This document shows, piece by piece, positions 24,275-43,715 of a stretch of 64,000 nucleotides of DNA. The translations under genes and the position numbers were made by a program. The first letter of the stretch is position 1, and each line of letters opens with the position of its first letter. The notes beneath the pieces are model-generated. The model saw nothing but the letters and a program-made list of their open reading frames with translations, made no database searches and was not told the DNA's origin. The stretch spans positions 32,001-96,000 of IMG/VR virus record IMGVR_UViG_3300027793_000063. The stretch is one strand, 5' to 3'. Source of the DNA: a virus (Duplodnaviria > Caudoviricetes).

Positions 24275-26188
24275 CTATTTCTGCATGACGTCCGCCAGCG
24301 GCACACGCCCAGCGAGGACGTCCTCGAGCTGCTGCTTCGTCAGTCCCAGCATCGTGCGTGCGGCGTCCTCCATCGCTGGATTGAGGATGGGCCGCGGCAG
24401 ACGAATGCGGCCCCACCGCTCCCCATTCAGCAGCCGGTTGTCGAAAAGGCCACCGGGGATCGGTGTCAGGTCGCGAAGATTCACCATCTCGCCGTTTTCG
24501 ACGTCGATCGGATCGCGCTCGTCCAGGTCGCCGTCCGTGAATGGCGCGAGGCGATACTTGCCCTTGCCGGAGTTGCGCGTGTTGATGCCGGCGCCCGCCA
24601 GCAGCGCGCGGAACTTGTGCCAGACAAACGGCTCGCCGATCTTTGGCAGCGTCTTGTCCGTGCGCAGTGCCATCCAGAAGTCGTGATTCTTCTGCCCGCG
24701 GATTGTGGCATTCTCCCGCATCAGCGAGTAGGCCCCGCTGGACAGTGTTGCAAAATTCTCGAGACCCGAGAAGCGCTTGGCCTGCGCGAATTCGCCGCCG
24801 CCGCGCGTCGGCTGCTGATTTTGGTCATAACTGCCTGTGCCACGGGCACTTACCTTCCCTTCACTTGTATGGTGCAGCTTGTGCACGAAGCCGTAACCCA
24901 CCGTCACCGGCGCGTCCAGCATCCGGCCTTCCTCCGGATCGTAGACCATCTCCTGTGACTGCACGCCGTTCTCGCGTTCCAGCTGGTCAATGTAGTCGTT
25001 CCAGTTCTGCCCTTTCGGCAGGTAGCTGGGCAGCTTCAGCGCGCGCCCCAGCTTCTTGGCAACCTTGCCGAGCCGCAGTTCGTGCTGTGACGCCGGGTTC
25101 GCCCGGGAGACTAGGGACAGCGGATTGAGCAGCGCATCCAGCGGCTGTCCGTCCTCCGTCCGCGGCATCTGGTCGTCGGGAATGATCTTCGAGACGGTCG
25201 CCTTGGCGCCCTGCCGCAGCACGATCTTGTCTCCGACTTCCGTCGGCTTTAGAAATTTCAGGACTACCTTGTAGCCGTTCTTGGTCGCGCGCGCGGCGAT
25301 GACCTGGGCCGGCTGCTGTCCGTGCCACACCTGAGCGGCGTCGCGGCGCTGCTGCCTCAGCGCCTTGCTGAGGCGCCCGATGTTTGCGCCGTCTGACGAC
25401 AGCGTGCGAGGCATCGTCGCGAGCATGACGGGGTCACCAGGCTCCAGCACGGTGCCAGGTCGCACCAGCCCGTGTTCGTCAAAATTTTCCAGCTTCTCCT
25501 TGGTGAAGCGGTTCGGGAAGAGGGCGCGGTAGTGGCTGAGACCTGTCTTCAGATTGTCCGAGCGGTCCTGGTGCATCACCTTGTATTGGACGGCGGACAG
25601 GCGCTTGGCGAACGACTCGCTGACAGGCATGGCGTCGTCCATTCCGAAGCCCTTGAATGGCACCAGAGCGATGCGGGCGTTCAGCCCCATGTTTTGCACG
25701 CCGTTGTCGTCCGTGTAGGACGATGCTGCCATCATCTGCCCGGGTTTGAAGGTGTCACCTTTCTTGAGCAGTGCACGAGAGGAAATTCCCGATTTCTGAT
25801 TGAAATACTGCTCGTTGTATAGGTCGACGTCCGCCGTCTCGCCGTCATCGTAGGAGACGCGGATGTAATCCGGCGTGACGCTGATGACGCGCCCGGCGCG
25901 CTTGGCGCGGACGGCGCCCATGTTCTCGCCGACGATTTCGTCAAAGCTGCGCCCTTCGGGGTCGGACGTGTCCAAGTTCTGGATCAGCGGAGCTTCGCCC
26001 TTGTCGATCGCCAGCGCCTGGTTCGCGAACCGCGCGCCGTAGAACAGCCGCGGCGCTTGCACTGCGCCGGCCAGCGGAATCATGTTGGTGTGCGACCCAA
26101 ACTGCTGCGAGGGCGAGGACAGCTCGTAATCGACATCCGGATCGTCATCCGGCACCTCTTCGAGGCGGTTGTTGCGTACGACGTGCAT
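24275..26188 (-). CDS. rpoB: RNA polymerase beta subunit C-terminal part fused to beta-prime N-terminal segment
   Basis: SPSQQFG...IP...RLFYGARFANQA (cf. NRALMGANMQRQA), GFGMDDA (cf. GYNFEDS), VGDKIVLRQGAK (cf. GDKMAGRHGNK), DQMP...LNPLSLVSR, KLHH...KVSARGTG.Y...QQP...KRF. The tail GEMVNLRDLTPIPGGLFD...ERWGRIRL matches the RpoC N-terminus. Confidence 0.92.
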   Translation of the reverse strand: MHVVRNNRLEEVPDDDPDVDYELSSPSQQFGSHTNMIPLAGAVQAPRLFYGARFANQALAIDKGEAPLIQNLDTSDPEGRSFDEIVGENMGAVRAKRAGRVISVTPDYIRVSYDDGETADVDLYNEQYFNQKSGISSRALLKKGDTFKPGQMMAASSYTDDNGVQNMGLNARIALVPFKGFGMDDAMPVSESFAKRLSAVQYKVMHQDRSDNLKTGLSHYRALFPNRFTKEKLENFDEHGLVRPGTVLEPGDPVMLATMPRTLSSDGANIGRLSKALRQQRRDAAQVWHGQQPAQVIAARATKNGYKVVLKFLKPTEVGDKIVLRQGAKATVSKIIPDDQMPRTEDGQPLDALLNPLSLVSRANPASQHELRLGKVAKKLGRALKLPSYLPKGQNWNDYIDQLERENGVQSQEMVYDPEEGRMLDAPVTVGYGFVHKLHHTSEGKVSARGTGSYDQNQQPTRGGGEFAQAKRFSGLENFATLSSGAYSLMRENATIRGQKNHDFWMALRTDKTLPKIGEPFVWHKFRALLAGAGINTRNSGKGKYRLAPFTDGDLDERDPIDVENGEMVNLRDLTPIPGGLFDNRLLNGERWGRIRLPRPILNPAMEDAARTMLGLTKQQLEDVLAGRVPLADVMQK

Positions 26189-26191
26189 GCG

Positions 26192-28294
26192 CTAGGACTG
26201 AGCCGCGGCGAGTCGCGGATCGGTTGTGATCTGGTTGCCGTAGATCTGACTGATGATCCCCATCCGATCGGGTGAGTTTACCATGTCGGACTCGCGCATG
26301 TAGCGCGGTGGCTGAGGCGTAGTGAGACGCTTCTTCAGCATCCAATCGAACATCGTGTCTCCAAGCGCTCCGTAGGATGCGCGATAGAGTCCAAGCCGCG
26401 GAAACAGCGCGTTGGCGCCGGCGTGATTGTTGAGCATCTGCCCTGATTCGGGCGCGAGATGCCGGAAAGGCTTCGGCGCGGTCCGTCCGGTCTCCGGGTC
26501 GATCGAGCCGGGCACACCGGCGGTGCCAGTGATGTAACTATCGTTGCCGTTGACCTGCAGACGCCCAGGCGCGGGCGGTCCTGTCATTGGCGGCGGCGGA
26601 CTTGCGACTTCGGGCGGCTCAGGCGGCATGCCGGTGGTGTAGCTCTGCCCGTTGACCTGCAGGCGCCCAGGCGCGGCCGTCTTGATTTGACCGACACGCT
26701 TCTGCAGCCGATCGATGCGGTTGCCGATCAGCCGTCCGGCGATCGTGTTCTCGCTGGCGCTCGCGGACGCCGCGCCGTCCGCCTGGGCCTTGCCCATCGC
26801 GGCCGTCATTTTCGCCTGCTCCTTCTGCACTGCGGACGTGGCCTTTGCCTGCTCCTTCTGCAGTGCAGCCGTGGCCTTTGCCGTCTCGAGCTGCAGTTTC
26901 AGCACTTCTTTTTCCTGCTGCTGCTTGCCCAGCTCCTGCTGAAAGCGCTGCTCCTGCTCCATCTGCGCCTGCATGGCTGCCTGCTCCGTCTGGCCCTGCT
27001 GCTGTGCAGCGGCCTGCTCGGCCTGCATGGCTTTTTGTTCGGCCTGCATCACCGCAGGGTTTGCGGCAGGCGGTGGCGTGATGGAGTTGGCAGTCGCCTG
27101 CTGCTGATTCTGCATCCGCAGCGCCGGGTTCTGTCCGAGCTGCGGCGGCACTGGGACGGCGCCAGCCGGCGCAGGCGCTGGTCCTAGCGCATACTTGGTG
27201 AGTTCGGCGACGAGACCCACCAGCGACGCAGCGGACTTCTCCACAGGCTGCGGCTGCTTCTCGTTGCGATGCTTCGTGCGCGCGCGAGTTTCCGTACGCA
27301 GGCGGCGGCGTGTATCGCGCCCCAGGTTCTGGATGAGCCGGTTCGAAAGTTGCAGGTCACCGATGGGCAGCTTGATCTGCGTCTCGATGTCGCCGGGATG
27401 AGCGGTCGGCAGCGTGACGCTGGCGGTTCCTGCTGCCTCCAGTGCAAGGCGCTTCTGCTCCAGGTCGCTTTTCTGTTTCGCCTTGTAGAGCAGAATGCCC
27501 AACGCGCCCAGGCCGAGCCCGCCGGCCCCCAACCAGACTTCCTTCGGGATGGATTTGATCGGGTTCTCGGCTGGCGGTTTCGCGCGGTCGTGTGCAAAGG
27601 ATTTCGCCGCCTCGGTCGCCGCGTTGTCGACGTTGTAGAGAGTGCCGACTCCTTTCATCGCGAGATCTTTGGTCGGCGCGAGCGCGATAGCACCGAGCCC
27701 GGTGAGGACGTTCTTGCTAGCGATCTGATGTCCGCCGACGGCCCCGAGCAGGGCGTTCAGCCCGCCCATCAGCGTGCGCTCCTTGTCCCACTTCCACGGT
27801 TGGAAGGTGCTGCCGATCGGACGCTTCGTGTCGGCCGCCTGGTCGAAGAACGCGGTCGTGCCGAGTGCTCCGAGAACGCTGCCCAGCGCCTGGATTTTGG
27901 CGTTCGCACACTTCTCGACGACCTCGATGTTCAGACTGCGCGCCAGGGCCCTGGACGGCGAGTTGTGCCGCATGATCATGGCCTTCACGTCATCGCAATG
28001 ATCGCGGACTTCCCGGATGACCTGTGCGACGGCCGACTTCGCGAAGCCGCGCTCGCGGTATGCCGGCAGAATGCCGACCGCGTAGTATCCGACTTTTTTT
28101 TCGCCCTCGTCGAACTTCTGCCAGCCGACAAAACCCACCGGGTCCGCGGTGGCAGATTCTTTCACGAGATACAGCCCGCCGTTGAACTGATTGGTCTTCA
28201 GTCCGTGCGGCCAGTAGGACGGATCCTCGTGCAGGATTCGACTCATGATGCCTTCGACGATGGGCAGCTCGGAGGCCGCGGCAACTTTGATCAT
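26192..28294 (-). CDS. multidomain probable virion protein: N-terminal GNAT acetyltransferase, glycine-zipper segments, Q/A-rich coiled coil
   Basis: GNAT: VGYYAVGILPAYRERGFAK...HNSPSRALARSL; GxxxG-rich hydrophobic helices; start refined to MIKVAA at 28294. Confidence 0.7.
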   Translation of the reverse strand: MIKVAAASELPIVEGIMSRILHEDPSYWPHGLKTNQFNGGLYLVKESATADPVGFVGWQKFDEGEKKVGYYAVGILPAYRERGFAKSAVAQVIREVRDHCDDVKAMIMRHNSPSRALARSLNIEVVEKCANAKIQALGSVLGALGTTAFFDQAADTKRPIGSTFQPWKWDKERTLMGGLNALLGAVGGHQIASKNVLTGLGAIALAPTKDLAMKGVGTLYNVDNAATEAAKSFAHDRAKPPAENPIKSIPKEVWLGAGGLGLGALGILLYKAKQKSDLEQKRLALEAAGTASVTLPTAHPGDIETQIKLPIGDLQLSNRLIQNLGRDTRRRLRTETRARTKHRNEKQPQPVEKSAASLVGLVAELTKYALGPAPAPAGAVPVPPQLGQNPALRMQNQQQATANSITPPPAANPAVMQAEQKAMQAEQAAAQQQGQTEQAAMQAQMEQEQRFQQELGKQQQEKEVLKLQLETAKATAALQKEQAKATSAVQKEQAKMTAAMGKAQADGAASASASENTIAGRLIGNRIDRLQKRVGQIKTAAPGRLQVNGQSYTTGMPPEPPEVASPPPPMTGPPAPGRLQVNGNDSYITGTAGVPGSIDPETGRTAPKPFRHLAPESGQMLNNHAGANALFPRLGLYRASYGALGDTMFDWMLKKRLTTPQPPRYMRESDMVNSPDRMGIISQIYGNQITTDPRLAAAQS
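26545..26677 (-). repeat. intragenic duplicated motif (APGRLQVNG x2)
   Basis: ccgttgacctgcag(a/g)cgcccaggcgcgg occurs twice about 100 bp apart. Confidence 0.7.
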
Positions 28295-28299
28295 GCGGA

Positions 28300-28328
28300 A
28301 TGCTACCGCACTTTCCGTCGCAGGTAAA
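28300..28328 (-). promoter_or_regulatory. sigma70-like promoter, near-leaderless
   Basis: TTTACC-17nt-TAGCAT, then 5 nt to ATG 28294. Confidence 0.45.
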
Positions 28329-28334
28329 GAGGAA

Positions 28335-28370
28335 GCAGCCGCCGCCACCGGTGAGGGTGGCGGCGGCTGC
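28335..28370 (-). terminator. intrinsic terminator-like hairpin
   Basis: 15-bp perfect stem gcagccgccgccacc / ggtggcggcggctgc followed by TTCCTCTTT on the minus strand. Confidence 0.7.
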
Positions 28371-28402
28371 GACGATTTTTCCTTGTAGTGGTTGCGCGCG
28401 GC

Positions 28403-29365
28403 TTACGCCGCGCCGTCCTGGTTCATTGCGGCAATTTGCGCAGGCGTCAGTTCCAGCCGCTTGTGCGCGACATCGAACGCCGCAGATACGCTGCCGCTGC
28501 TGCAGTAGTCCGCGAACAGATCCGGGTCGCTTGATCCTCCGGCGTAGCGCGCAGCCCGAGCCGCCGCGATGCTCGCCTTCTTCGCGTTGCGCTGCTTTGT
28601 TTCACTGTCGTTTTGCTGCTTCAGTATGTTGCAGCTCCCGAGCTTGCCAAACTTGGGGAGCTTGCTGAAGCCGCCGAACATGTGGCACATGACAATCGTG
28701 ACGTCCCACGCCGAGACGAGGGTCTCGGCGTAGGCTTCCGCCTCCGGCGCAAGACGCGCCAGGAGATCGTTACTGCCGCTGCCTGGGACGGCTCCGGCAT
28801 CCCGCATGTCCTGCCAACTGCGCGGATCGACATAGATCTCGGAATTAGTTCCATTGGGGAGGTGTCCGATGAAGTGCTTGTCCGATCCCGGCGCGACGCG
28901 CAATATGCCCCACCCGGCTGCGGTGGGCATCAGATGTCCGAGTCTTGCCGACAGCCACGGTATCTCCGTCATGTTCACGGTGTAATCACCGCGGGCGGCG
29001 TCTCCAGTCAGCGTGATCAGTTCAGGCTCCGGCTGCTTGCCTGCCTGCATCCCGGCGAGGATCATTTCCGGGGTGATGAGTATCACCGCGTCCGTGTTCT
29101 CCGCCTCCTTGCGCCGGAATGCGGCGCCCCCAAAATACAGGATTTTACCGACGCCGTCGTAGGCAGCGAGGGCAAATCCGCACATGCGCCGCACGAATCC
29201 GCGGCGGAAGCGTCGCCCTGGTCTGGTGGTTATTCTGTTTGGGTTCGCCTGTGCCGGCTCTTTGGCCGCTTCGAACTCTTCGGGCGTGGCGCGCAGCCCG
29301 CAGAGTTCGGTTACTAATCCTTGCATGTCCTCGAGAGGGCTGAATGGGAGTTTGCTGATGTGCAT
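28403..29365 (-). CDS. hypothetical protein (self-contained promoter-gene-terminator unit)
   Basis: 320 aa; long AC-rich leader. Confidence 0.7.
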   Translation of the reverse strand: MHISKLPFSPLEDMQGLVTELCGLRATPEEFEAAKEPAQANPNRITTRPGRRFRRGFVRRMCGFALAAYDGVGKILYFGGAAFRRKEAENTDAVILITPEMILAGMQAGKQPEPELITLTGDAARGDYTVNMTEIPWLSARLGHLMPTAAGWGILRVAPGSDKHFIGHLPNGTNSEIYVDPRSWQDMRDAGAVPGSGSNDLLARLAPEAEAYAETLVSAWDVTIVMCHMFGGFSKLPKFGKLGSCNILKQQNDSETKQRNAKKASIAAARAARYAGGSSDPDLFADYCSSGSVSAAFDVAHKRLELTPAQIAAMNQDGAA

Positions 29366-29434
29366 GTTTGTTGGTGTTTGTTGTTTTTGTTGGTTGGTTG
29401 GTGTTCGTTATGCGAACGGCATGAATTGCCGCTA

Positions 29435-29470
29435 GCAATGTATTATGACGCAATCCGCGTCATTTTTGCA
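29435..29470 (-). promoter_or_regulatory. conserved promoter motif, copy 1
   Basis: TGCAAAA-N14-GTCATAATACATTGC; near-identical arrangement at 51644-51679. Confidence 0.6.
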
Positions 29471-29868
29471 TGGAGCGCCGCGTGCTCCTGAACACTCACC
29501 TGCACCGTCATCGGCGGTTTTCCGCGCAGCTTCGAGCTATACAACCCCAGAATCCGCCGTGCCTTACCCTCCAGGCGACCGTTGATGTCCCGCGGACGCA
29601 ACGTCCAGCCGATTACCGGCAGTCCTTTGAGATTCCATTTGAGCACCCGGATGAAATAAATGCGGGCCGGCTGTCCGGGTAGTCGCAGCTGATCCAGCGC
29701 TCCTATCAGTTTTCCGTAACGGTCGATGCGGTAGATCACCGACGGGTAGCATGGGATCTCGGCCAGGCTGTAAATCAAGCTGATGGCCCGCTTCGTGTCG
29801 CGTATCCCATACACGACCACTGAGTCCAGCGGTTTGCTTACGGCGTCCGGTGTCGGAGCATCAGCCAC
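29443..29868 (-). CDS. hypothetical protein
   Basis: Probable GTG start at 29868. Confidence 0.45.
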   Translation of the reverse strand: MADAPTPDAVSKPLDSVVVYGIRDTKRAISLIYSLAEIPCYPSVIYRIDRYGKLIGALDQLRLPGQPARIYFIRVLKWNLKGLPVIGWTLRPRDINGRLEGKARRILGLYSSKLRGKPPMTVQVSVQEHAALHAKMTRIAS

Positions 29869-30454: not shown

Positions 30455-30467
30455 GGTGTCGGGTTGG

Positions 30468-31061: not shown

Positions 31062-31067
31062 ACCCCA

Positions 31068-31096
31068 GTAATGCGTCGCCGCCCGGATTCCGTCAA
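31068..31096 (-). promoter_or_regulatory. sigma70-like promoter, near-leaderless
   Basis: TTGACG-17nt-CATTAC, then 6 nt to ATG 31061. Confidence 0.45.
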
Positions 31097-31130
31097 CCCG
31101 TTTCTCTCTAAGCAAAATACGTTTCGCGCC

Positions 31131-31297: not shown

Positions 31298-31311
31298 CTT
31301 TCTTCTGGGTC

Positions 31312-31926: not shown

Positions 31927-31967
31927 CGCACTGGGCGATGACCGGGCAGATGAACCGCAAAGAAATT

Positions 31968-33389: not shown

Positions 33390-33393
33390 GGTG

Positions 33394-34450: not shown

Positions 34451-34455
34451 AAATG

Positions 34456-35319
34456 TTACAGATAGTCGGTGATTAAAACTTGTCCCAGAATATTGCGGCG
34501 CGGACCGGCGTCGTAGCCGTGTCCCAGCGCGCCGCCCAATATACCACCCGCGATCATGGGTAGCAAGCCTTTGGAACCCAGAAAGCGCACCGCGAGGGCG
34601 CCGATGCCCGCACCAGTCGCAGTGCGTAGCAGGCGATAGAGATCCTCCTGATCAGAAGATCTGGCACTTGCGAGGGCGCGCAAGATCAGCGCGCGCTGTC
34701 CGGAGTTGATCGACGGATCGCTGTTCAACAGTTGAATGACGAGGGGCAGCCAGTCCGTCGCTGCCTGCTTTGAAAGCCACGCCTCGCGGCGGTTGTGCTT
34801 GCTCTGCGCCCATGCAGTGCCGGCCGCGCCAACACCGCCGGCAAGCAGCGCAGCCAGGAGCGCGCGCTTGATCGGACTCCCGCCCTCCCGCCTACTGGGT
34901 CCCCACAGATAACCACCCACTCCGCCGGCCAACGCCGACAGCAGCCCGGCCGTGCCGACGGCCTTGCCCTGCGACGAACCCCCCCAGTCGAGCGCTTTGC
35001 CGATGCCGCTGGCAATCGAATCGTTCCACTGTCGCGCGGGGGTTTTCGGAATGCGCTGCAGCGGCGCATACCCGTTGTTGGCCGCTTCTTGCAGATGCAT
35101 CATCCGGTAGGCCGGATCGAAACTCAGCTTGTACTCGTCGGGAGTCATATACACCCGGGAGTCGTCCGGTGAGAGCCCAATGGAAGCCTTCGGATGTTGG
35201 AACGAAATTTTACCGTCAGGTTCGTTCCGAAAATCCCACACCTCGCCCTGTAGGTGGTGCGGAATGGACTTCGGAACCGCGCCGTGCGGCGTGAGCGGAT
35301 TGGTGATCTCCTCGGTCAT
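34456..35319 (-). CDS. probable virion protein with glycine zippers
   Basis: AGGVGGYLWG, AGGVGAAG, GGILGGALG; SKQAA between domains. Confidence 0.6.
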   Translation of the reverse strand: MTEEITNPLTPHGAVPKSIPHHLQGEVWDFRNEPDGKISFQHPKASIGLSPDDSRVYMTPDEYKLSFDPAYRMMHLQEAANNGYAPLQRIPKTPARQWNDSIASGIGKALDWGGSSQGKAVGTAGLLSALAGGVGGYLWGPSRREGGSPIKRALLAALLAGGVGAAGTAWAQSKHNRREAWLSKQAATDWLPLVIQLLNSDPSINSGQRALILRALASARSSDQEDLYRLLRTATGAGIGALAVRFLGSKGLLPMIAGGILGGALGHGYDAGPRRNILGQVLITDYL

Positions 35320-35555: not shown

Positions 35556-35564
35556 CGCATCGAG

Positions 35565-35593
35565 ACTATACGATTATTGCTGCTGTCCGGCAA
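35565..35593 (-). promoter_or_regulatory. sigma70-like promoter
   Basis: TTGCCG-17nt-TATAGT, 9 nt before ATG 35555. Confidence 0.5.
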
Positions 35594-37436
35594 GCATTTG
35601 CCCGACTTGGGCACGCCCTTGCGAACCAGCCTGCGCGCGCATCTTTTCCATGGCGTCTTTCGCCGCGGCATAAAGCGTCGGATTGATTGCCTCGGCCCGC
35701 TGCATCTCCTTGCGGTGCGAATTCGGCTGCTGCGTGTGCATCTGGATCCACTGCTGGGCGATCTCCTGCGCGCGCTGCTGCACCATGGTCGGGTCGGCAT
35801 TTGTATCGACGGCGTAATCCAACGGAGCAGCGGGGGCGCCGGCCGCCGCACCAGCCCCGCCCTGGGCGGCCTGCTGCATGGACTGCTCGGCCGCTGCCAT
35901 TGCAAGATCGGCCATGGAACCCTGCGTGCGTTCCTTCTCGTAATTCTTCGCAAGCTCTTCGGCTCCACGCTGAATCTCCTGATCCTCCTCGATGGCCCGA
36001 ATGTTCGCGGCCTCCGGGTCGGTGACCCCGATGTCCGGGTAGACATCCTTTCGGGGAATCTCGCGGTTTGCGGCGAGCTGCATACGCAGTTGCATCCACT
36101 CGGCGTTGTATGCCATGACCGGACGCTTGAGTCGCACCTCCATCTCCTTCGATTCGAAGGCTCGCTGCACCGTGCGCGCGATAAATTTGAGCAGCCCGTC
36201 GAGTTCTGCGTAGAGCCACTCATACTGCCGCTCGAACATGCGAATGGCATTCGGCAGCTGCTCCGGATTCAACGTGCCACGGAATAATTCACGCGGGAAT
36301 CCAAGCCCGTCGAACAGCTGGTCGGTGTATGCCTCCACGACGTCATACAGCACCATGGCCTTGCCTCCGCCGTCGAAGGTCTGCATCTCGATCGGGAACG
36401 GCACCGCGTGGATCGATGTGGCGTCCCTCCGGCGCGCGGCGATCATGTTCTGCATCTCCGAGCGCCAGCGCGACATCAGTGTGGTGAGCACGGCGTCGCC
36501 GATGTTTCCACCGAAGTTCGGACTCAGCACTCTCGTCGGATGCAGGAACTCCTGCGCGACGGCGAAATCCGCCTTCCGGTAAATCGCCAGTTGGTAGAGC
36601 GCATCGTAGTGCATCAGCACTTCCGGCACTGCCCATCCGGAATCGGAGACTCCGCACGGCGTCGGCGATCGAAAATGATGCACCTCGCCCTTGCGGAATC
36701 GATAGTCCTTGTTCTTCGAGATCGCCTCCAGCAGACCGCGCGGCGTGTTGTTGATCTCGTGCAGCTTGTTGTGCTTGACCCTGGCCTCCATGTCCGGAGG
36801 AATCCGGTAGATGTATTCCGTCGTGTCCGCGTGGTGCGGCGAGTCCAGATCCACGTAGCGCGGGTCCAGGAAGATGATGGAGAAGCGGTCAGGCGCAGCA
36901 GACGGCTTGTCGCGGAATTCCAACCTCACAGTCGGCAGATCGGCCATCTTGCGCTTTTGTTTCGGCAGCTTCGCCGCCGCTGCCATGTCCGGCACCTCGT
37001 AAACCATATCGGCCCAGTGATACTTCACCAAATGTTCCGGAAATATGTCCAACGAAATGGCGCGCTGGAGTCCGTCGCGGTTGTCGATGAGCCAGCGATC
37101 GAACGGCTCGACGCAGCGGACGAACGCCTGTCCGTAGATGGCCCACTCTGCGCCGGCCTTCTGCATCTTCGAGAAGACGCGCAGCGTTTCCAACAGCAGC
37201 CGCTCCAGCTTCTTCTGTTCGTCCTTGTCGCCCGCGTCGACGAATTCGATCCCGGTGATGAAGTAGGAAATTACCCGGTTGCATACTGCTCCATACAGAC
37301 GGTTGGTCCGGTAGAGATAGAGACACAAGTCGAACGTGGACTTGATGTCGCTCGGGAATGAATCTGTCGACGGAAGCAGGAATGGATCTCCAAACTTTTT
37401 GGAACCGTTCAGAAAGGAGTTGGAGATGACGGCCAT
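35574..37436 (-). CDS. probable phage portal protein
   Basis: 620 aa with portal-like layout: YLYRTNRLYGAVCNRVISYFIT, AIYGQAFV, VHHFRSP...GWAVP, LFDGLGFPRELF; Q/A-rich tail. Confidence 0.65.
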   Translation of the reverse strand: MAVISNSFLNGSKKFGDPFLLPSTDSFPSDIKSTFDLCLYLYRTNRLYGAVCNRVISYFITGIEFVDAGDKDEQKKLERLLLETLRVFSKMQKAGAEWAIYGQAFVRCVEPFDRWLIDNRDGLQRAISLDIFPEHLVKYHWADMVYEVPDMAAAAKLPKQKRKMADLPTVRLEFRDKPSAAPDRFSIIFLDPRYVDLDSPHHADTTEYIYRIPPDMEARVKHNKLHEINNTPRGLLEAISKNKDYRFRKGEVHHFRSPTPCGVSDSGWAVPEVLMHYDALYQLAIYRKADFAVAQEFLHPTRVLSPNFGGNIGDAVLTTLMSRWRSEMQNMIAARRRDATSIHAVPFPIEMQTFDGGGKAMVLYDVVEAYTDQLFDGLGFPRELFRGTLNPEQLPNAIRMFERQYEWLYAELDGLLKFIARTVQRAFESKEMEVRLKRPVMAYNAEWMQLRMQLAANREIPRKDVYPDIGVTDPEAANIRAIEEDQEIQRGAEELAKNYEKERTQGSMADLAMAAAEQSMQQAAQGGAGAAAGAPAAPLDYAVDTNADPTMVQQRAQEIAQQWIQMHTQQPNSHRKEMQRAEAINPTLYAAAKDAMEKMRAQAGSQGRAQVGQMLAGQQQ

Positions 37437-37449
37437 CGGTTAAAGCGTG

Positions 37450-38256
37450 TCAGTTTTCGCGCGGACGATCGAAGTCCAGCCTGGCGACCCCGGCGACATT
37501 AGCGACGGACTTGCCGACCTCCGGGAACCGCGCGCTGGCGCTCTTCTCGCCGTCCACAATGGGCTCGCCGGTTTCGTCGTCAACGCGATCGCTCGGTCGT
37601 CCGGAAACGACCGAAGGAACTCCGTCATGTAATACGCCTTGTTTTTCCACGCTGGCAGACTGAGGCAAAAAGCAGAGCAAGTCAATCCCAACCCCAGGAT
37701 AAAGCTGCATCGGCGGCGCCAGGCACAGCACGCGCACGCGCGGGGAATCGCGGTGCTCCAGAAAGCTGATCTCCAGTTCTGATCCCGGGTGTGGCGCAAA
37801 CATTGACTCCGAAGATCTCACCATGATCAGCAGCAGGTGCTTGACGCGGTGCAGATGCATCGGCTCGGCGCTGCTCCACGCGACCGGTGATTTGACGTCA
37901 CCGATCGGCGTGTGGAACACCAGCGTGAGTTTCTTCCTGGTGCGGTCGCTCAGGCATTTGGCCACGGCCAGCAACTCACTCTCTGCCTCGGTGCCGAGCA
38001 ATTGCACAAGCACCGGTGGTATGCGTAATCCCGCTTCGTGAACCGCGACGATGGGCGAGTCCGGAATGTCATACTTCGGCGCCGGGACCGCAGGAATGCG
38101 AATTGTGGCCTGCTCGATTTCGTCCGCTTCGATGACCTCGCTCAGGTCTCCGCTGCGCATTCTCGCCACCAGCGCGTCGGTGGCGTCACCTGGGTTCGGG
38201 GGTCTGGATCCGGACTTCGCGCTCGAGTCCGGCGGCATGGTGGGTTGTGAGTGCAT
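37450..38256 (-). CDS. hypothetical protein
   Basis: 268 aa; EKSAS near the C-terminus; start uncertain. Confidence 0.6.
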   Translation of the reverse strand: MHSQPTMPPDSSAKSGSRPPNPGDATDALVARMRSGDLSEVIEADEIEQATIRIPAVPAPKYDIPDSPIVAVHEAGLRIPPVLVQLLGTEAESELLAVAKCLSDRTRKKLTLVFHTPIGDVKSPVAWSSAEPMHLHRVKHLLLIMVRSSESMFAPHPGSELEISFLEHRDSPRVRVLCLAPPMQLYPGVGIDLLCFLPQSASVEKQGVLHDGVPSVVSGRPSDRVDDETGEPIVDGEKSASARFPEVGKSVANVAGVARLDFDRPREN

Positions 38257-38902
38257 TGATTCTGGTAATGTGACGTTCGACTAGGTCGTAGGTCATGGGT
38301 TGCTTGTCGATTCTGCCGTCTATTTTGTGGTGCCGGCTGACGAACATACGGCGCTGTCCATCTGCGCACCGCTCCATCGTCACGACGATTCGGTGCGGTG
38401 CGAATTTGTCAGCCAGCGGTATCAGCTCCGGGTGCTGCGTCAGGGAGACGTCCACGCTCGTCGGCCAGCCGGCGTCGTAGCGCAGCGTGAACCATCCGCG
38501 CAGCCCGAACGCGTTGAACGCGAGGACGCAGATCGACAGCGCGCAATCGGTGGCCAGCTGCATCGCTTCTGAGAAAGTTGCCGCCGACGCCCATCCCACC
38601 ATGGCCTCCACGCAGGTGCGCGTTACCCTCGCGGGTGCCACGCTGCTCAGCGGCTGGCCGACGACGTCGCAGATGCGCGCAGCCCGCCCGGTTCGCATCC
38701 GTCCGCGATACGGCTTGCTTTTGGAAAGCAGCCGCTTGGCAGTAATCTGCGAGCAGTTCAGCAGCTTCGCAACCGCAGCGCAGCGGTTCGGGAAGCCGTC
38801 GGCATACGAGGACAGGTATTGCATCAGCAGCGGAGTCGACTCCGCTGGCAGCAGACGGTTCTCCGCCCTGCCGATGACACCACCGGCCGGTCCCGCTGAC
38901 AT
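38186..38902 (-). CDS. hypothetical protein, possible HTH
   Basis: AVAKLLNCSQITAKRLL is HTH-like. Confidence 0.5.
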   Translation of the reverse strand: MSAGPAGGVIGRAENRLLPAESTPLLMQYLSSYADGFPNRCAAVAKLLNCSQITAKRLLSKSKPYRGRMRTGRAARICDVVGQPLSSVAPARVTRTCVEAMVGWASAATFSEAMQLATDCALSICVLAFNAFGLRGWFTLRYDAGWPTSVDVSLTQHPELIPLADKFAPHRIVVTMERCADGQRRMFVSRHHKIDGRIDKQPMTYDLVERHITRINALTTHHAAGLEREVRIQTPEPR

Positions 38903-39088
38903 TTACTTCGCGCCCATGACCGTCTTGAAGAATCCGGACACGTTGCGCTCGCGCCGCGTGTCCTGCTTCACATAACTCGCATTCAGCGCGCTGCGGCGGG
39001 GCTCCGCAATGATCGCTGTGCTGTGGTCGAAACCTTGACGGCGGGCGTTGCGGATCTGCTCTTGTGTGGGTTGGGATTGGCTCATGGA
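38903..39088 (-). CDS. small hypothetical protein
   Basis: MSQSQPTQEQIRNARR...MGAK; starts just after the upstream stop. Confidence 0.5.
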   Translation of the reverse strand, partial: SMSQSQPTQEQIRNARRQGFDHSTAIIAEPRRSALNASYVKQDTRRERNVSGFFKTVMGAK

Positions 39089-39089
39089 A

Positions 39090-41927
39090 TTAGTCGGGTA
39101 GTTTGAGGGTCTTCCCCCGCAGGTTGCTGGGGCTGACCCACTCCTTCTTACCCGTGCGCCGGTTGACGAGCAACTGATAAATTCGACCGTCAGATCCGAC
39201 ACGGGCGCCGTGCGCCAGTCGGACGTCGATGCCGGCTTTTTCAGAATTGCCAGTCCAGTAGCCAGAAGTCCCTTTTTTGCCGCGCACATGCAACTGACCG
39301 CCCGGGACAGTGGCGCAGTAGACCAGCCCGCTGTGCGGCTGTCGGGACCAGTGCGCCTTTGAAATCTTCCGATCTTCGCGGCGCCAGATTCTCACATTGA
39401 AATATGGACGTCCGGCTGTTGTCTCGCCAACCTGCTTCGTGTAGGCCGAGTATCCCAATCCCATCGCCAACCGCTCTACGGATGCTGCAAGTCGCGCAGA
39501 GACAGTGCAGTATTTGAAACACTTGCTGGTATCAGTTCCGTCGCCGCGGATCAACGCATCAAGCATGCGCTGACGCGCTAGCAACGGCGCGGAGAATAGC
39601 GCATCCGGGATGTGTTTGTCGAAGCAGCCGCAGTCCCACTGTCGAAAATAATCGACGAACTGCAGGCCGGTGACGACGAGCGATGTCCCAGTCCCCGCAG
39701 CTCCCGGCAGTCCCATACGCCTGAACAGCGTAGAAATGCGCCGACGATTATCTGGATTTGCGACAGGACATTGGGTGATCGCCACTCGCTGTGTGCGGTG
39801 TCCATTTTTTCTTACGCCGTCAAACAGCGATCCTTCAGAAAGCCACCACCCCATGAATTCGCACCAGTCGCCGATGGTAAACGGCCCATAATGCTTCTGC
39901 GCGCTATACTTGCTCAACTTCTCGACCTCTGGCAGCTCAAAGTGCGTCATACTGGGATCCCCGATTTCCGGCTCGTGACGCGCTGGAATCCATAATGACG
40001 CGCCTTCTACTTCGTCCGCAGTCGCTACGCTGAAATCCCTGGTGTAGAAGTCGCGCTTGTGGATCACCCTGTGCTGCGGTGTCAGTGCCATACGCAATGT
40101 CTTGTGCTCTGCCACGATGAGATCCCCCTCGTAGTGTTCACGCACAATTCGCTCCGCGGGATGCCACTCGAGTCGACCGTCTATTTTACAGGCAAAAACC
40201 TCGTCGTCCGTGACCGCATCCCAACGCACCCATCCGCGGCGTGTATAAACCTCGTGATCGGCGGGAATGCATTCCGGCCCCGCGATCGGATCCACGAAGC
40301 CGAACTGCGTGGCGCTGACTGCCGTCATGTCGTCCGTGATGGCATTCGGGTCGCCGATGCCGCCGGGTCCCATTTTGGTGATGCGACGCTTCTGCTCGAG
40401 GATGTGCATCGGGTTGATCTCCTCCAGCGCTGTGACCAGCGGATTGGACTTGAGGTAGCCCATCGTGTATCCGCCGAACGCGTCCGGGCCCACAGGGTCC
40501 AGTGTACGTATGCGGCTCAGCCGTCCCATCATCGCGCGCAGGGTATGTCCGTGGTCGAGCTTGACACGCTCGGCCATCAGGCGGTCCACCGTGTGGACGC
40601 GGTCGTTCGGCAGGCTGTCGCGGTCGTCCGTCTCAGCCAGGCCGCGGTTCACGGCCAGCAGCTTCTCGGTGGCAGCCAGCAGGCCGTCGATACCCACCGG
40701 CGCATACTTCTCGTGCTCGTCGTCGTCCGCCAGGTAGCGGTGATGCGCCATGGGCGACTTCATCGGTGCTTTCGGCATCGGCTTCGGAACTCCGATCGGG
40801 ACGTAGGTCGATGCCGCCTTCGCAAACGCAGTCGGGCCATAATCCTGCGGATTGGCAAGCTGGTCCTCGTAAATGGGCACCTCACCCATCAATTGCCGAA
40901 GAGCGCGCGCCGTCACATTGCCGTGCAGCGCGTTATCCCGATGGGTCAGGTTGAACCGATCCGCCACCCACTTCCGACGATCGTCAGGCGTCTTGTCGAA
41001 ATTCCTGATGAAGCCCTGCCGGGTGTTGAACGTCATGACGTCATCATCCACCAGCTCCACCCGATGCAGCGGCTCATCCTCCTCTGGCTCGATCTCGGGA
41101 TGTTCCAGCCCCTGCGCGACGAGGTAGGCGCGCAATTTCTCCAGTGCGACATCAGCGTGCTTGTCCTCCACCGAGGCATGCACATCCCCGGTGTGAGCGT
41201 CATTCACGGCCAGGCCCGAAGCTTGCAGCTCCTTGAGGATCGCGTGCCAGTTCTTCCGCAGCCCCACGCCCTGCAGCTTGTCGCCGGACAGCCGGAAAGT
41301 CTTCGCCATCTTTTCCATCGGAAACTCCAGATACTTCGGATCGATCTTCCCCGTCGGATGGATGATCTGGACGTGCGGCACATCGCCGGCATACCGGCCG
41401 TGCCCGGGCTCGAAGTGCTTCCACAGTTCCTTCGGATTCTTCGCGCGCTCGATGAGCTGCTTGATCTCATCGATCTTCAGGTCGTGATGACGCTGGGCGA
41501 GGATCGGCTCTTTCTCTTCGTCCGACATGGCGTCCCACTCCTCGTCGCTCAGATGTCCCCACAGTTCCTTCCCTGGGGCCAGCTCGACGCCGTGGAGGCG
41601 CGTGTCCGGTGCGTCCCGCAGCAGGGCTTCGAGATCGATCTGCAGCGGCACAGACTTCCGCTGGTTCATCGGGTGTGTCGCGTCACCCTTGATGCGGTCC
41701 GTGTCGGGCTGCCCGAAGAATGCGGACGGGCCGGCGAACGACGCCTTCCACGGCTCGTCCTTCAGCTTCTGCTCCCGGAATGCCAGCCACTCGTCGGCCG
41801 CCTTGCCGGGGCGTGCGAGTTCCAGCAGGTGCCGGTTCTCGGGCTGCGCCAGGACGTCGCCGGACAGCAGCCCGTGCTCGCGGACTGAGTCCAGCGTTTC
41901 TTCAGGGATGTAGGACAGGAGCTTCAT
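39090..41927 (-). CDS. rpoB: polyprotein: ART-like domain + acylphosphatase-like domain + RNA polymerase beta middle segment with intein
   Basis: DDRDSLPNDRVHTV (cf. DDIDHLGNRRIRSV), INPMHILEQKRRITKMGPGG (cf. [19 protein letters not shown]), QFGFVDPIAGPE|SEKAG (cf. HYGRVCPIETPEGPNIG); LSGDKLQGVGLR is acylphosphatase-like. Confidence 0.85.
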   Translation of the reverse strand: MKLLSYIPEETLDSVREHGLLSGDVLAQPENRHLLELARPGKAADEWLAFREQKLKDEPWKASFAGPSAFFGQPDTDRIKGDATHPMNQRKSVPLQIDLEALLRDAPDTRLHGVELAPGKELWGHLSDEEWDAMSDEEKEPILAQRHHDLKIDEIKQLIERAKNPKELWKHFEPGHGRYAGDVPHVQIIHPTGKIDPKYLEFPMEKMAKTFRLSGDKLQGVGLRKNWHAILKELQASGLAVNDAHTGDVHASVEDKHADVALEKLRAYLVAQGLEHPEIEPEEDEPLHRVELVDDDVMTFNTRQGFIRNFDKTPDDRRKWVADRFNLTHRDNALHGNVTARALRQLMGEVPIYEDQLANPQDYGPTAFAKAASTYVPIGVPKPMPKAPMKSPMAHHRYLADDDEHEKYAPVGIDGLLAATEKLLAVNRGLAETDDRDSLPNDRVHTVDRLMAERVKLDHGHTLRAMMGRLSRIRTLDPVGPDAFGGYTMGYLKSNPLVTALEEINPMHILEQKRRITKMGPGGIGDPNAITDDMTAVSATQFGFVDPIAGPECIPADHEVYTRRGWVRWDAVTDDEVFACKIDGRLEWHPAERIVREHYEGDLIVAEHKTLRMALTPQHRVIHKRDFYTRDFSVATADEVEGASLWIPARHEPEIGDPSMTHFELPEVEKLSKYSAQKHYGPFTIGDWCEFMGWWLSEGSLFDGVRKNGHRTQRVAITQCPVANPDNRRRISTLFRRMGLPGAAGTGTSLVVTGLQFVDYFRQWDCGCFDKHIPDALFSAPLLARQRMLDALIRGDGTDTSKCFKYCTVSARLAASVERLAMGLGYSAYTKQVGETTAGRPYFNVRIWRREDRKISKAHWSRQPHSGLVYCATVPGGQLHVRGKKGTSGYWTGNSEKAGIDVRLAHGARVGSDGRIYQLLVNRRTGKKEWVSPSNLRGKTLKLPD
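39246..40271 (-). mobile_element. intein (342 aa) with LAGLIDADG homing endonuclease
   Basis: Starts CIPADHEVYTRRGW, block B LTPQHRV, DOD motifs FMGWWLSEGS and LDALIRGDG, block F VYCATV, ends GN followed by Ser+1; removal restores the RpoB motif; lower GC. Confidence 0.92.
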
Positions 41928-42226
41928 AACGTCGCGCAGGTTGGTTGCGGCATGCTGCGTATCCAGACTGCCTCCACCCCGTGCTCGATCCCGCTCATGC
42001 CCAAAGGAGGGCGATGAGTAGTGACGTATTCAAGCGTTCCGCGCATGAGATCAGTCACCGCCTTGATTTGAGCATCGCACGTGTCTGACAATTCTTGCGT
42101 CAGAGTCCCGTCGCCGGGCAGAGAGATTACCATGAACCACATGTCTTCGTCCGCCGCCTTGCGTATCTCGAAAGGCAGAGCGAAAACTCCCAGCGCCTCA
42201 TAGCCTCCACGTTGTGATTGTGTCAT
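41924..42226 (-). CDS. hypothetical protein between RNAP fragments
   Basis: 100 aa, lower GC. Confidence 0.5.
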   Translation of the reverse strand: MTQSQRGGYEALGVFALPFEIRKAADEDMWFMVISLPGDGTLTQELSDTCDAQIKAVTDLMRGTLEYVTTHRPPLGMSGIEHGVEAVWIRSMPQPTCATL

Positions 42227-42227
42227 T

Positions 42228-43715
42228 TTATTGTAGATCCTCCGGTTTGATGTGTCCCTCCAGCGCCAGCGTCATCAGCTCCCCAGGTCCGGGAGCGTCG
42301 TCGGTCTTGGCACCGCGGCCGCGCGCCAGCTTGGCTAGGCGTTCGCGCTCGGAGTCGTCGAAGTCGTGCCGCTGCATGTAGTGGCGGACATACTCCTTAC
42401 GGCGGTAGCCTTCCATCTCCTCCTTGAAGTCTTCCCGCTGCTTAGCGGGCAGCAGCTTCAGCGGGTCGATGCCCCAGTTGACCAGGGCGAACGCGCGGCG
42501 TGGTGTCGGCTTGGCCTCGAACTGCGCGCCGGTCCGAGCCTTGAAACTTTTCCACCTGGCGATCTGCTTCTCGTCTGTCTCGCCGCGGCGACCGGTGTGG
42601 TAGTTCTCATACCACTGCAGCCAGCCCTGCTTGTCGGTGTCGTCCAGCCAGTGCTCCGGCCACGCGCGCATGGACGCAAGGCGCGGACCTTTGCCGCCGT
42701 AGATCGCGTTGTAGGACTCCTTGAGTTCGTCCGGCGTGAAGTCCGGGGAGAACGCCGCGCGCTTGGTCAGCGGCACGTCGAACGATTCCCACTGTCCCCA
42801 TATCTGTTCGGGCGTGAAGTCAGGATCGAACGGGACGGCTGCCGCCTTGGTCATGCGGTCGGCTGCGTCGATCGCGGCCCCCGCCATCCTCCAGCTTGCC
42901 GCCTTCTCGTGGCTGTAAAGGTTCGGCAGGTTCTGCTTGAGAATCGACTCCGCCACCTGGGCGCGGTCCAGCGCCGCCCGGATGTCCTTCACGCGGTCCT
43001 CCGGCGCGCGCGCTGGGTCGCGCTCCCACTTCGGGATCACCTTGTTGTACACGCGGTCCAGCGTGTGCCTCGAATACTTCGCCCGGTTGGCTTCGAGAAT
43101 CTCCGGCCCCCACCGGCGCGCGAGCTCCTCGTCCGTCACCCCGAGGTCCTTGAACACCGAGTAGGCGTGCAGGTCCGACGATCCCACCTTGAGACGATAC
43201 TGCGCCGTGCGCGGGTCGAACGACACCCGCATGGCCGAGCCGGTGCCGGGGCGCACGTTCAGATGCGTCTCGAGTTCGCCATTGTCCCGGCGTCGCGTGT
43301 AGGCCCCAGGCAGCAGGCGCGACTGCATGGCTGGGGCATACTCGGATCCGTTCTCGATGAACGTCCCGCGCTCCGTCAGGTAAGGCACTCGGGCCAGCGT
43401 CACATTCTTGCGCTCGTCGAGCACCTCGTTGGTCACGTCGTCCACGAGCCGCATCGTTCCGCGCAGCCGGCGCACGAGCGACTTGTCGTCCAGCAGCGCC
43501 TCGCGTTGCTCGGCTTTGGTGAACCTCGCCGGACCGACATACTTCATGTCTTTCAGCTCCAGCCGGACTCCGCCGTAGGCGTAGCCGTTGACGTAGCGCT
43601 GCATGGACTGCATCACAGAGGTATCGATCGCCTCCCGCGTGGCGTCGGAATCTTCCGGGTCGCGAAGCGTGACGCCTTCTGGCGGCTCAGGGATGTCGGA
43701 GGATGGGTTCGGCAC
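42228..43715 (-). CDS. rpoB: RNA polymerase beta N-terminal segment fused to a Trp-rich domain of unknown function
   Basis: RRLRGTMRL...NVTLARVPYLTERGTFIENGSEYAPAMQSRLLPGAY (cf. [36 protein letters not shown]); C-terminal GWLQWYENYHTGRR...QIARW. Confidence 0.85.
   Translation of the reverse strand: MPNPSSDIPEPPEGVTLRDPEDSDATREAIDTSVMQSMQRYVNGYAYGGVRLELKDMKYVGPARFTKAEQREALLDDKSLVRRLRGTMRLVDDVTNEVLDERKNVTLARVPYLTERGTFIENGSEYAPAMQSRLLPGAYTRRRDNGELETHLNVRPGTGSAMRVSFDPRTAQYRLKVGSSDLHAYSVFKDLGVTDEELARRWGPEILEANRAKYSRHTLDRVYNKVIPKWERDPARAPEDRVKDIRAALDRAQVAESILKQNLPNLYSHEKAASWRMAGAAIDAADRMTKAAAVPFDPDFTPEQIWGQWESFDVPLTKRAAFSPDFTPDELKESYNAIYGGKGPRLASMRAWPEHWLDDTDKQGWLQWYENYHTGRRGETDEKQIARWKSFKARTGAQFEAKPTPRRAFALVNWGIDPLKLLPAKQREDFKEEMEGYRRKEYVRHYMQRHDFDDSERERLAKLARGRGAKTDDAPGPGELMTLALEGHIKPEDLQ

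Follow-up and report, generated by a model that had tools for sequence, protein, structure and literature searches.

Can a bacterial-type beta subunit of RNA polymerase (RNAP) that is spread over three dispersed open reading frames (ORFs) of a phage still belong to a working enzyme, and what are the extra sequences that its pieces carry? This question is raised by a 64,000-nucleotide stretch of viral DNA, here called the window, which covers bases 32001-96000 of a 126,971-bp IMG/VR virus record (the contig; CheckV completeness 68%). The window has ~61% G+C and its minus strand carries nearly all genes. The three ORFs that an earlier note on this DNA had assigned to the beta subunit are open on the minus strand at the positions given there: P0001 (N piece), P0002 (middle piece) and P0003 (C piece) (Table 1). 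The reading favoured here, at a probability of about 0.8, is that they represent three of the five genes of one bacterial-type two-barrel RNAP whose split is derived, which carries an intein and lobe add-ons, and which is packaged in the virion.

Two related IMG/VR contigs, both found through P0003 and both 100% complete, serve for comparison: G001 (184,016 bp, with terminal repeats; 99% protein identity) and G002 (200,158 bp; 84% protein identity). By DNA alignment the contig is colinear with G001 from position 177128 down to 67716, at ~95-97% DNA identity. Three further near-identical loci (L029, L030 and L031) hold the segment from the N piece to the middle piece; together with the window and G001 they form a strain group of five. 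Megablast of 20 kb against a set of 50,697 phage records gave no match. The virus appears to be an uncultured phage of ~184 kb and a distant relative of Salmonella phage Arash.

Pieces of the beta subunit and of the whole enzyme

Judging from three kinds of comparison, P0001, P0002 and P0003 are colinear pieces of a bacterial-type RNAP beta subunit, namely its N-terminal, middle and C-terminal parts, as the earlier note had proposed. PHROG 24349 (1191 positions) is matched in order: P0001 67-173 aligns with positions 75-181, P0002 411-553 with 380-526 and P0003 15-501 with 608-1099. When Arash gp206 is used as a tblastn query on the contig, P0001 corresponds to its residues 49-235, P0002 to 270-422 and 416-469, and P0003 to 496-1112; there is no match past residue 1112. 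The adjacency of gp206 residues 469 and 496 supports the view that the middle piece ends about where the C piece begins.

Searches of PDB sequences with phmmer give the same order. P0001 81-209 matches bacterial beta (E=3.8e-6; residues 119-220 of the E. coli chain), which covers the N-terminal protrusion and lobe; P0002 410-552 matches E. coli beta 419-565 (E=1.7e-7), which covers the fork domain and the Rif-pocket region; and P0003 6-528 matches bacterial beta, ranked first at E=2.9e-45. Among the 60 PDB matches listed for P0003, bacterial beta ranks highest (to ~1e-29), plastid beta and archaeal B come next (~1e-23), and eukaryotic second-largest subunits are last (1e-15 to 1e-17). All 60 are cellular or plastid subunits and no phage structure is among them, in keeping with the likeness to cellular RpoB that had been noted by eye.

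Among Pfam families, Rpb2_6 is found in P0003 (residues 125-463; E=3.9e-45, 155 bits, cut-off 23.4), Rpb2_3 stays below its cut-off in P0002 (19.3 bits; cut-off 21), and P0001 has no match. P0003 retains the acidic pair and both lysines to which attention had been drawn (MDDA at 183, GDK at 319, GAK at 327); we take these motifs to be the equivalents of the active-site acidic pair and lysines of E. coli. RpoB is not one continuous polypeptide in this virus: it occupies three ORFs, of which the second and third lie 13 kb apart, and the same is seen in G001 and G002.

A beta subunit split in three is an incomplete picture, as the enzyme is found in five ORFs. Arash gp206 and gp216 together map onto five same-strand ORFs in both G001 and G002: beta-N, beta-mid, beta-C, beta'-mid (with NADFDGD) and beta'-C. 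The NADFDGD piece lies outside the window, as the earlier note had said. No frame of the contig contains a DxDGD motif, and a scan of the contig with one Rpb2 and one Rpb1 profile, of the kinds that the note had suggested, gives one match for PF00562 and none for PF00623. PF00623 has one match in each of the two complete relatives: in G001 it falls in a 1044-amino-acid (aa) ORF at 178250-181384, ~1.1 kb past the contig's end point, and in G002 it falls within a 386-aa open frame. Since the contig is a fragment and both complete relatives carry an ORF with NADFDGD, the objection that the genome might hold no DFDGD-bearing fragment does not apply. There is one catalytic RNAP set per genome. Misassembly is ruled out by the identical layout in independent contigs (five genes in G001 and G002; beta-N to beta-mid in L029-L031); the layout is not an assembly artefact.

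The end of P0003 is probably the start of beta', which would make the C piece a beta-beta' fusion fragment. It is colinear with gp206 beyond the point where beta ends, and in the metagenomic protein P0368 a stretch homologous to P0003 386-628 runs unbroken into Rpb1_1 (profile positions 175-259) and Rpb1_2.

The closest CHARACTERISED relatives are unsplit. P0003 matched 22 of the phage records in a tblastn search, and four of these cover at least 80% of it (92-97%) at ~30% identity: Salmonella phage Arash and Vibrio phages D69, D181 and D148. Arash gp206 (1525 aa) lies after the portal gene and a 92-aa ORF. As it has DYDGD near its C-terminus, gp206 is beta fused with the N-terminal half of beta', and gp216 (606 aa) is the remainder of beta'. 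D69 has the same layout, with ORFs of 1527 aa and 609 aa. In all four phages, as here, the beta region is colinear and runs into beta', and a portal gene is near. Unlike the virus studied here, which has five genes, Arash and D69 have two, with no tail, module A, module B or intein at the aligned positions. This two-gene layout argues that the five-way split is derived. Compared with the PHROG 24349 type, the whole beta region is colinear here; the run through NADFDGD is broken, as P0003 stops ~100 residues into beta'.

The pieces show no sign of the relaxed selection that the earlier note had named as a ground for doubt. Ratios of nonsynonymous to synonymous substitution (dN/dS) were calculated by the Nei-Gojobori method, leaving out the 51 residues of beta-mid that follow the intein. 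Between the window and G002 they are 0.146 for the beta-N core, 0.233 for its tail, 0.147 for the beta-mid core, 0.116 for beta-C and 0.128 for the beta' tip; between the window and G001 they are 0.131 for module A and 0.050 for module B. All measured pieces are under purifying selection (dN/dS 0.05-0.23). From its sequence, the split beta subunit looks functional.

Intein, tail and modules

The insert in the fork motif of P0002 is best explained as a homing intein. Alignment of the contig with G001 shows ~1027 bp extra in the contig at a single G001 point. The insert is precisely absent from G001, L029, L031, G002, P0004, P0007 and P0130, in which the site reads ...AGPE followed directly by SEKAGIDVRL.... 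Two of the five near-identical strains, the window counted, carry an intein: L030 (7657-8721) has a 355-aa allele at the same site which is only 46.7% identical, between exteins that are 99-100% identical to those of the window. P0141 has a shortened copy at this site, from which the first endonuclease motif has been lost. A homing intein would be expected to show just this combination of exact presence or absence and a divergent allele in one position.

The element begins with Cys553 and ends with ...YWTGN (Asn894), after which comes Ser895; all three residues are kept in the L030 allele, and the Cys and Ser in P0141. Inside it are a TPQH block and, assigned by reading the alignment, two LAGLIDADG-like motifs (of MGWWLSEG and LDALIRGDG type). 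Nothing significant was found among PDB sequences. In the alignment with E. coli beta, the insertion site falls where the PIETPE stretch ends (~residue 565), in a part of the fork that adjoins the Rif pocket. Since the intein interrupts a conserved fork motif next to the active centre, the middle piece would have to excise it to give a working enzyme. The extra sequence of this piece had been described as cargo only; this does not hold, as ~36% of the ORF (342 of 945 aa) would be mobile intein.

The polymerase family seems unusually intein-rich. Intein or LAGLIDADG Pfam domains are present in eight of 91 beta-C homologues (P0284, P0300, P0304, P0310, P0312, P0331, P0348 and P0367); 14 of the 91 are at least 979 aa long, and besides the eight there are six of ~1000 aa with no annotated intein domain. 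Another insert is seen in the beta'-mid ORF of G001, where ~630 aa stand straight after NADFDGD. Two LAGLIDADG-like motifs are recognisable in this insert, whose first residue is Glu, not Cys or Ser, and whose last residues are ...VILSN, with Thr next in the chain. G002 reads NADFDGD followed directly by TMSVHVP, without an insert. The G001 insert could be an intein of a non-canonical kind; otherwise it would be an insertion at the catalytic loop that does not splice.

The N piece has an addition of another kind. The homology of P0001 to Arash and to bacterial beta stops near residue 265, and the next ~230 residues have no counterpart there. An AlphaFold model of P0001 200-495 (296 residues) shows an all-helical tail with a mean predicted local distance difference test (pLDDT) of 80.7, rising to ~90 in the last 140 residues. 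Searches with this fold gave nothing convincing (best E=1.6 with Foldseek against PDB, best Z 4.6 with VIA, best E=0.036 in BFVD). The ESM Atlas gave the tail a lead to Rpb2_2 clusters alone, with a score of 0.76, which is under the trust level, and gave P0002 1-385 no usable match.

The best 120 of 170 beta-N homologues were classified, and their make-up shows that the tail is old. Core and tail with a common end are found in 112; seven have the core fused to beta-mid and are tail-less; one, P0119, is unsplit and holds core, tail and mid within one chain, so that the tail is present in 113 of the 120. P0119 and the tail-less core-mid forms suggest that the tail arose by insertion at this point of the beta lobe and that the split behind it came later. 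The extra domain reported on the N piece is therefore present, but as an insertion at the beta-lobe site that also occurs inside an unsplit chain.

The N-terminal part of P0002 differs between strains. The window, G001, L029, L030 and L031 all have a 100-aa ORF (orf100) and 383 extra N-terminal residues on beta-mid, which comprise modules A and B. The beta-mid of G002 is just 220 aa, starts in an ATGA overlap with beta-N and has neither module. As it is absent from the 84%-related G002, the N-terminal cargo is a recent, strain-variable addition. P0004 (94% identical) has module A without module B. In P0005 both modules are free-standing and in reversed order, and module order varies between proteins; in P0141 module A is internal, between the beta-N core and the beta-mid of an unsplit chain. 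A locus search with the module A-bearing protein found near-identical strains alone. The claim that two of the pieces are fused to cargo stands in so far as both the N and the middle piece carry extra domains; the extra part of the middle piece is two modules and an intein, not one block.

Module A is predicted to have an ADP-ribosyltransferase (ART) fold like that of DarT and Tpt1. The AlphaFold model has a pLDDT of 95 and a predicted template modelling score of 0.90. Against the 48,161 chains of VIA, the top four matches are DarT (Z 8.5, 7.4, 7.2 and 7.2; root-mean-square deviation 3.5-4.1; 130-150 aa aligned), followed by Tpt1/KptA (Z 5.4-6.7) and then mostly by other ART-fold proteins. Foldseek also gives DarT, with a probability of 0.92-0.95 and E=0.02-0.03. 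Sequence identity to the DarT and Tpt1 structural matches is 7-18%. Ten positions (G66, H85, G113, E115, P118, W169, Y179, V183, P184 and H185) are invariant in 29 sequences down to 30% identity. No DarG-like partner to go with the DarT likeness was identified.

Module B resembles acylphosphatase. It aligns with a stretch of P0005 (residues 88-142) which matches Pfam Acylphosphatase (PF00708) at E=2.2e-6 and 28.3 bits; P0009 and P0137 match the same family at 29.8 and 28.4 bits (cut-off 22.5).

Modules A and B occur in a wide range of proteins. An exhaustive search with P0002 1-400 gave 251 cluster representatives, which range from free proteins of ~200 aa to giants of 2577 aa; 152 proteins were examined (150 listed, plus P0004 and P0005). 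An RNAP segment of the present type is also held by 15 of the 152 and by none of the other 137: eight have beta'-mid, five beta-mid, two beta-N and one beta'-C, with P0141 counted in both beta-N and beta-mid. In a Pfam comparison of six large module-bearing proteins, three have Rpb1_2 or Rpb1_5 together with inteins and two have no match; other domains in the matched proteins are InPase, NUDIX, MazG, Acylphosphatase and AAA_33. Some beta-N homologues have 2H-phosphoesterase or NUDIX domains.

Genes between and beside the pieces

Between the second and third pieces lie the portal gene and about ten other genes. Both of the gene types that had been said to separate the beta pieces were found: the portal gene, whose ORF has no Pfam or PHROG match and is recognised through Arash gp204, and a glycine-zipper gene, the ORF at 34456-35319, which contains three GxxxGxxxG motifs. 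When 18 neighbouring ORFs were compared with Pfam and PHROG, the GNAT protein alone matched, apart from a sub-threshold SAP_new25 match on a 210-aa ORF.

Table 1. Positions in the window of the RNAP pieces, their parts and adjoining genes
Feature	Position	Strand	Basis or remark
P0001 (N piece)	42228-43715	-	495 aa; no internal stops
P0002 (middle piece)	39090-41927	-	945 aa; no internal stops
P0003 (C piece)	24275-26188	-	637 aa; no internal stops
beta-N core (P0001 1-265), N-terminal protrusion and first part of lobe	42921..43715	-	phmmer PDB, Arash gp206, PHROG 24349
Helical tail of beta-N (P0001 266-495 and stop codon), at lobe insertion/split site	42228..42920	-	no Arash gp206 counterpart
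orf100, 100 aa, between beta-N and beta-mid	41924-42226	-	translationally coupled
Module A (P0002 1-203), putative ADP-ribosyltransferase-fold domain, nearest DarT and Tpt1/KptA	41319..41927	-	predicted fold
Module B (P0002 204-383), acylphosphatase-like domain, then helical stretch	40779..41318	-	aligns with P0005 Acylphosphatase stretch
beta-mid N-extein (P0002 384-552), end of lobe/protrusion and fork including Rif-pocket region	40272..40778	-	phmmer PDB; weak Rpb2_3
Putative intein with LAGLIDADG homing-endonuclease domain (P0002 553-894, 342 aa), after GPE of fork motif	39246..40271	-	1026-bp in-frame insertion
beta-mid C-extein (P0002 895-945 and stop codon)	39090..39245	-	G001 100% identical over 51 aa; aligns with Arash gp206 416-469
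Portal gene	35574-37436	-	tblastn with Arash gp204: 24.7% identity over 267 aa, E=5e-25
718-aa GNAT protein	26192-28348	-	Acetyltransf_1 residues 52-137, E=1.6e-7; PHROG 1249 (acetyltransferase)
beta-C (P0003 1-536), beta after fork, hybrid-binding catalytic region with two lysines	24581..26188	-	Rpb2_6; PDB bacterial beta
Probable first ~100 residues of beta', fused in frame to beta end (P0003 537-637 and stop codon)	24275..24580	-	colinearity with Arash gp206 to 1112

The GNAT protein consists of an N-terminal acetyltransferase domain and ~570 residues without assigned function. It ends 3 nucleotides before the start codon of beta-C; the two are therefore probably co-translated. The ATG of orf100 lies 2 nucleotides past the beta-N stop codon, and its end forms an ATGA overlap with the start of beta-mid. 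orf100 is present in four of four near-identical loci and is confined to strains that also bear modules A and B. It has no credible match in G002 (best E=1.2) and none in Pfam or NCBIfam. Two plus-strand ORFs (61 and 162 aa; 38295-38975) with high third-position G+C lie between beta-mid and a 268-aa ORF upstream of the portal gene. They are the sole opposite-strand genes within the region described here and have no family match.

Further away, the minus strand encodes a 704-aa C5 cytosine DNA methyltransferase (4015-6129). Its Pfam and PHROG matches fall in separated stretches (671 residues against 283 profile positions for PHROG 116), which suggests a large internal insertion; the G001 counterpart is of equal length. 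A single 1243-aa ORF (51825-55556, minus strand) combines a uracil-DNA-glycosylase-superfamily domain, a 3'-5' exonuclease and a family A DNA polymerase. A PAPS-reductase-like protein (57353-58387, minus strand) adjoins a Dda-like helicase (58391-60112, minus strand), and a primase-like protein is found at 61557-63026; this group may be a DNA-modification or replication module.

Scenario, alternatives and known systems

The following scenario would account for the locus. The ancestral layout would have been two genes, one for beta with the N-terminal half of beta' and one for the C-terminal half of beta'. Three further cuts, inside the beta lobe, after the fork domain and ~100 residues into beta', would have produced five genes, which were then dispersed; both beta' genes would lie elsewhere in the genome, past the contig end. 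The five polypeptides are expected to assemble non-covalently into one enzyme after the middle piece has excised its 342-aa intein, and the covalent beta-beta' link in P0003 may aid assembly where an alpha homologue is absent. The lobe break point would be a hot spot for added domains, with a conserved tail and, in this strain group, modules A and B. The enzyme would be packaged in the virion and enter the cell with the DNA, carrying the modules along.

Packaging is suggested by the virion proteomics of Arash, by the neighbourhood of the portal and structural genes and by cargo domains of polyvalent type. In Arash virions gp206 is the most-detected protein (3516 spectra), gp216 gives 1210 spectra and a sigma factor is also present (PMC10585845). 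The earlier note had called the enzyme probably virion-packaged; this is plausible by analogy, as both Arash proteins are abundant in virions, and for the present phage we infer it.

Several points weigh against this reading. Assembly, splicing, activity and packaging in this phage are predicted from sequence. The contig itself is without the beta' genes, whose presence is read from G001, with the gene ~1.1 kb beyond the contig end in a relative that is ~95-97% identical in DNA. For the last ~100 residues of P0003, colinearity is the ground for the assignment to beta'; a search with them among PDB sequences gave nothing relevant. Neither complete relative has a match to the alpha-subunit family PF01000 or, above cut-off, to sigma region 2 (PF04542), and a search of the contig for homologues of gp196, the sigma factor of Arash, was negative. 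The intein has no Pfam match at E<=1 and has sub-threshold matches alone in NCBIfam (E=0.003-0.12, to intein-containing helicase, gyrase and Tes proteins); its penultimate residue is Gly in place of His. Module A has no family match in Pfam or NCBIfam at E<=1, and the fold assigned to it is a prediction whose scores are moderate. In the window, module B fails to match Pfam Acylphosphatase at E<=1.

One alternative is that the split enzyme is real but acts inside the cell on middle or late genes, so that the modules never enter from the virion. This would agree with the non-virion sets that phiKZ-type phages have besides their virion sets (PMC7824862) and with the remark of the Arash authors that abundant enzymes might be carried along in purified particles (PMC10585845); moreover, the virion proteomics drawn on here is that of Arash. 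It is rendered unlikely by the single catalytic set in each complete genome, by the rank of the Arash homologues as most-detected virion proteins (PMC10585845), by the position of the RNAP genes among structural genes such as the portal gene, and by fused domains of the kind reported for virion-delivered polyvalent proteins (PMC5512222). The added domains might instead be lineage-specific structural insertions in the lobe, like those of bacterial beta, with no enzymatic role for the tail or the modules and with module A as a decayed ART fold. The insertion-tolerant site, the internal position of added domains in P0141 and P0119 and the failure of the window's module B to match the Pfam model all fit such a view. 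It is nevertheless doubtful: ten positions of module A, a His, a Glu, a Tyr and a second His among them, do not vary in 29 sequences; dN/dS stands at 0.13 in module A and at 0.05 in module B; and both modules are also found as free proteins of ~200 aa and next to NUDIX, MazG, InPase and kinase domains.

Two other explanations concern the pieces themselves, and both are highly improbable. The three ORFs could be decaying remnants of a once-intact rpoB-like gene that no longer gives a working enzyme; the gene is fragmented, one piece holds a selfish element and the beta' piece is not in the contig. Decay does not explain dN/dS values of 0.05-0.23, intact catalytic motifs, piece boundaries that recur in 112 of the 120 listed beta-N homologues (to ~40% identity) and in most of the 91 beta-C homologues, or beta' pieces that are present and open in both complete relatives. 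The pieces could also be rejoined into one beta chain, after translation by split inteins or at the RNA level by trans-splicing. Inteins are common here, in eight of 91 beta-C homologues and once each in the window and G001. The piece ends, however, have no intein blocks (starting Cys, TxxH, ...GN followed by Ser): P0002 ends in ...KLPD, P0003 starts with MHVV... and P0001 ends in a helical domain. The intein found here is a complete cis element, and the second and third pieces are 13 kb apart with independent genes between them.

The five-gene, virion-packaged enzyme remains the preferred reading. A more tentative suggestion concerns its cargo. The break points, above all the beta-lobe site, might dock interchangeable effectors (DarT/Tpt1-like ADP-ribosyltransferase, acylphosphatase-like, NUDIX, MazG, InPase, 2H-phosphoesterase and kinase) that are delivered to the host on polymerase fragments. 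The cargo may be enzymatically active. Since the lobe lies beside the transcription bubble, some docked modules may work, while transcription is under way, on the single-stranded DNA exposed there or on the 5' end of the RNA being made; possible reactions are NAD-dependent ADP-ribosylation and the repair or capping of RNA ends. We regard this suggestion as possible rather than probable.

Phage RNAPs of several kinds are already known. The mReC clade, multi-subunit-RNAP-encoding Caudovirales (Weinheimer and Aylward 2020), consists of uncultured tailed phages with beta and beta' subunits that readily align to cellular homologues and lie near Bacteria in trees; the bit-score filter of that study excluded fragmented subunits, and the main text of the paper does not contain the words 'split', 'intein' or 'sigma' (PMC7481178). 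Phages of phiKZ and AR9 type have beta and beta' as several polypeptides, with the beta of the virion enzyme in three parts (PMC7824862). Their cuts differ from those seen here and give an N part, a catalytic-barrel part and a C-terminal extension; they have also been argued to be primitively split, while the split here appears to be derived from a fused form (PMC7824862). The phiKZ and AR9 enzymes are far more diverged from cellular RNAP than the present pieces. Subunits of YerA41-like and other jumbo phages match just 50-61% of P0003 (E=6e-7 to 5e-14), and the Arash and Vibrio phage proteins match better. The claim that the fragmentation arose independently of phiKZ and AR9 is supported by the closest cultured relatives, Arash and D69, in which two genes encode this enzyme.

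Natural splits of cellular RNAP include archaeal B''/B' and the rpoC1/rpoC2 of cyanobacteria and plastids. By PDB alignment, the second cut in the present enzyme falls just past the fork domain, near Thermus beta residue 500-515; this is presumably about where euryarchaeal B'' ends and B' begins. The cellular splits lack cuts 1 and 3, the gene dispersal and the covalent beta-beta' link seen here.

Polyvalent proteins and N4-type virion RNAP also combine a virion-delivered polymerase with varied effectors (Iyer et al. 2017, PMC5512222). The InPase, NUDIX, MazG and ART-type domains found beside module A in homologues belong to the polyvalent-protein vocabulary; the polymerase that carries them there is the single-subunit N4 type, whereas the carriers here are fragments of a multisubunit enzyme (PMC5512222). 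The text of that paper contains neither 'acylphosphatase' nor 'intein' (PMC5512222). Inteins have been described in eukaryotic and giant-virus second-largest RNAP subunits, where they occupy strongly conserved positions close to the active centre (Goodwin et al. 2006, PMC1635734). Two of these, in Ddi RPC2 and Bde RPB2, lie in the fork domain, and some end in TGN like the window's intein; their hosts are eukaryotic genes or genes of nucleocytoplasmic large DNA viruses, in contrast to the phage gene here (PMC1635734).

Cell-like multisubunit RNAPs of phages, split RNAPs of phiKZ and AR9 type (PMC7824862; see also PMC7598289) and inteins in eukaryotic and giant-virus RNAP genes are thus already known. 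Searches of the open literature, subscription journals and supplements apart, gave no description of the split pattern, of an intein in phage beta or of ART domains on multisubunit RNAP fragments; no earlier report of the same split, which the earlier note had allowed for, was found there. New are a dispersed five-way split of a cell-like RNAP which, on present sequence comparisons, clearly goes back to a two-gene layout; a lobe site that serves for docking and is variably occupied by ART-fold and other enzyme-like modules; and inteins that are polymorphic between strains, in the fork and, in one relative, at NADFDGD.

The locus shows where a bacterial-looking RNAP can be cut and decorated while probably still working. 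Four tolerated cuts (that of Arash counted), the beta-beta' link and the lack of a detectable alpha make it a natural experiment on how two-barrel RNAPs are put together and on the engineering of split enzymes. As unsplit, half-split and fully split forms occur in one clade, one can work out in what order insertion, fission and cargo gain took place. The polymorphic inteins near both catalytic centres mark active gene flow among uncultured phages, and they are natural intein/endonuclease pairs with known empty sites. If the break points do serve for docking, the polymerase would bring nucleic-acid-modifying or counter-defence activities of its own, and gene fission would be the evolutionary means of providing free termini for cargo. 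Should the modules prove active and virion-delivered, fragments of multisubunit RNAP would be a further class of carriers of injected effectors, besides MuF and N4-type proteins.

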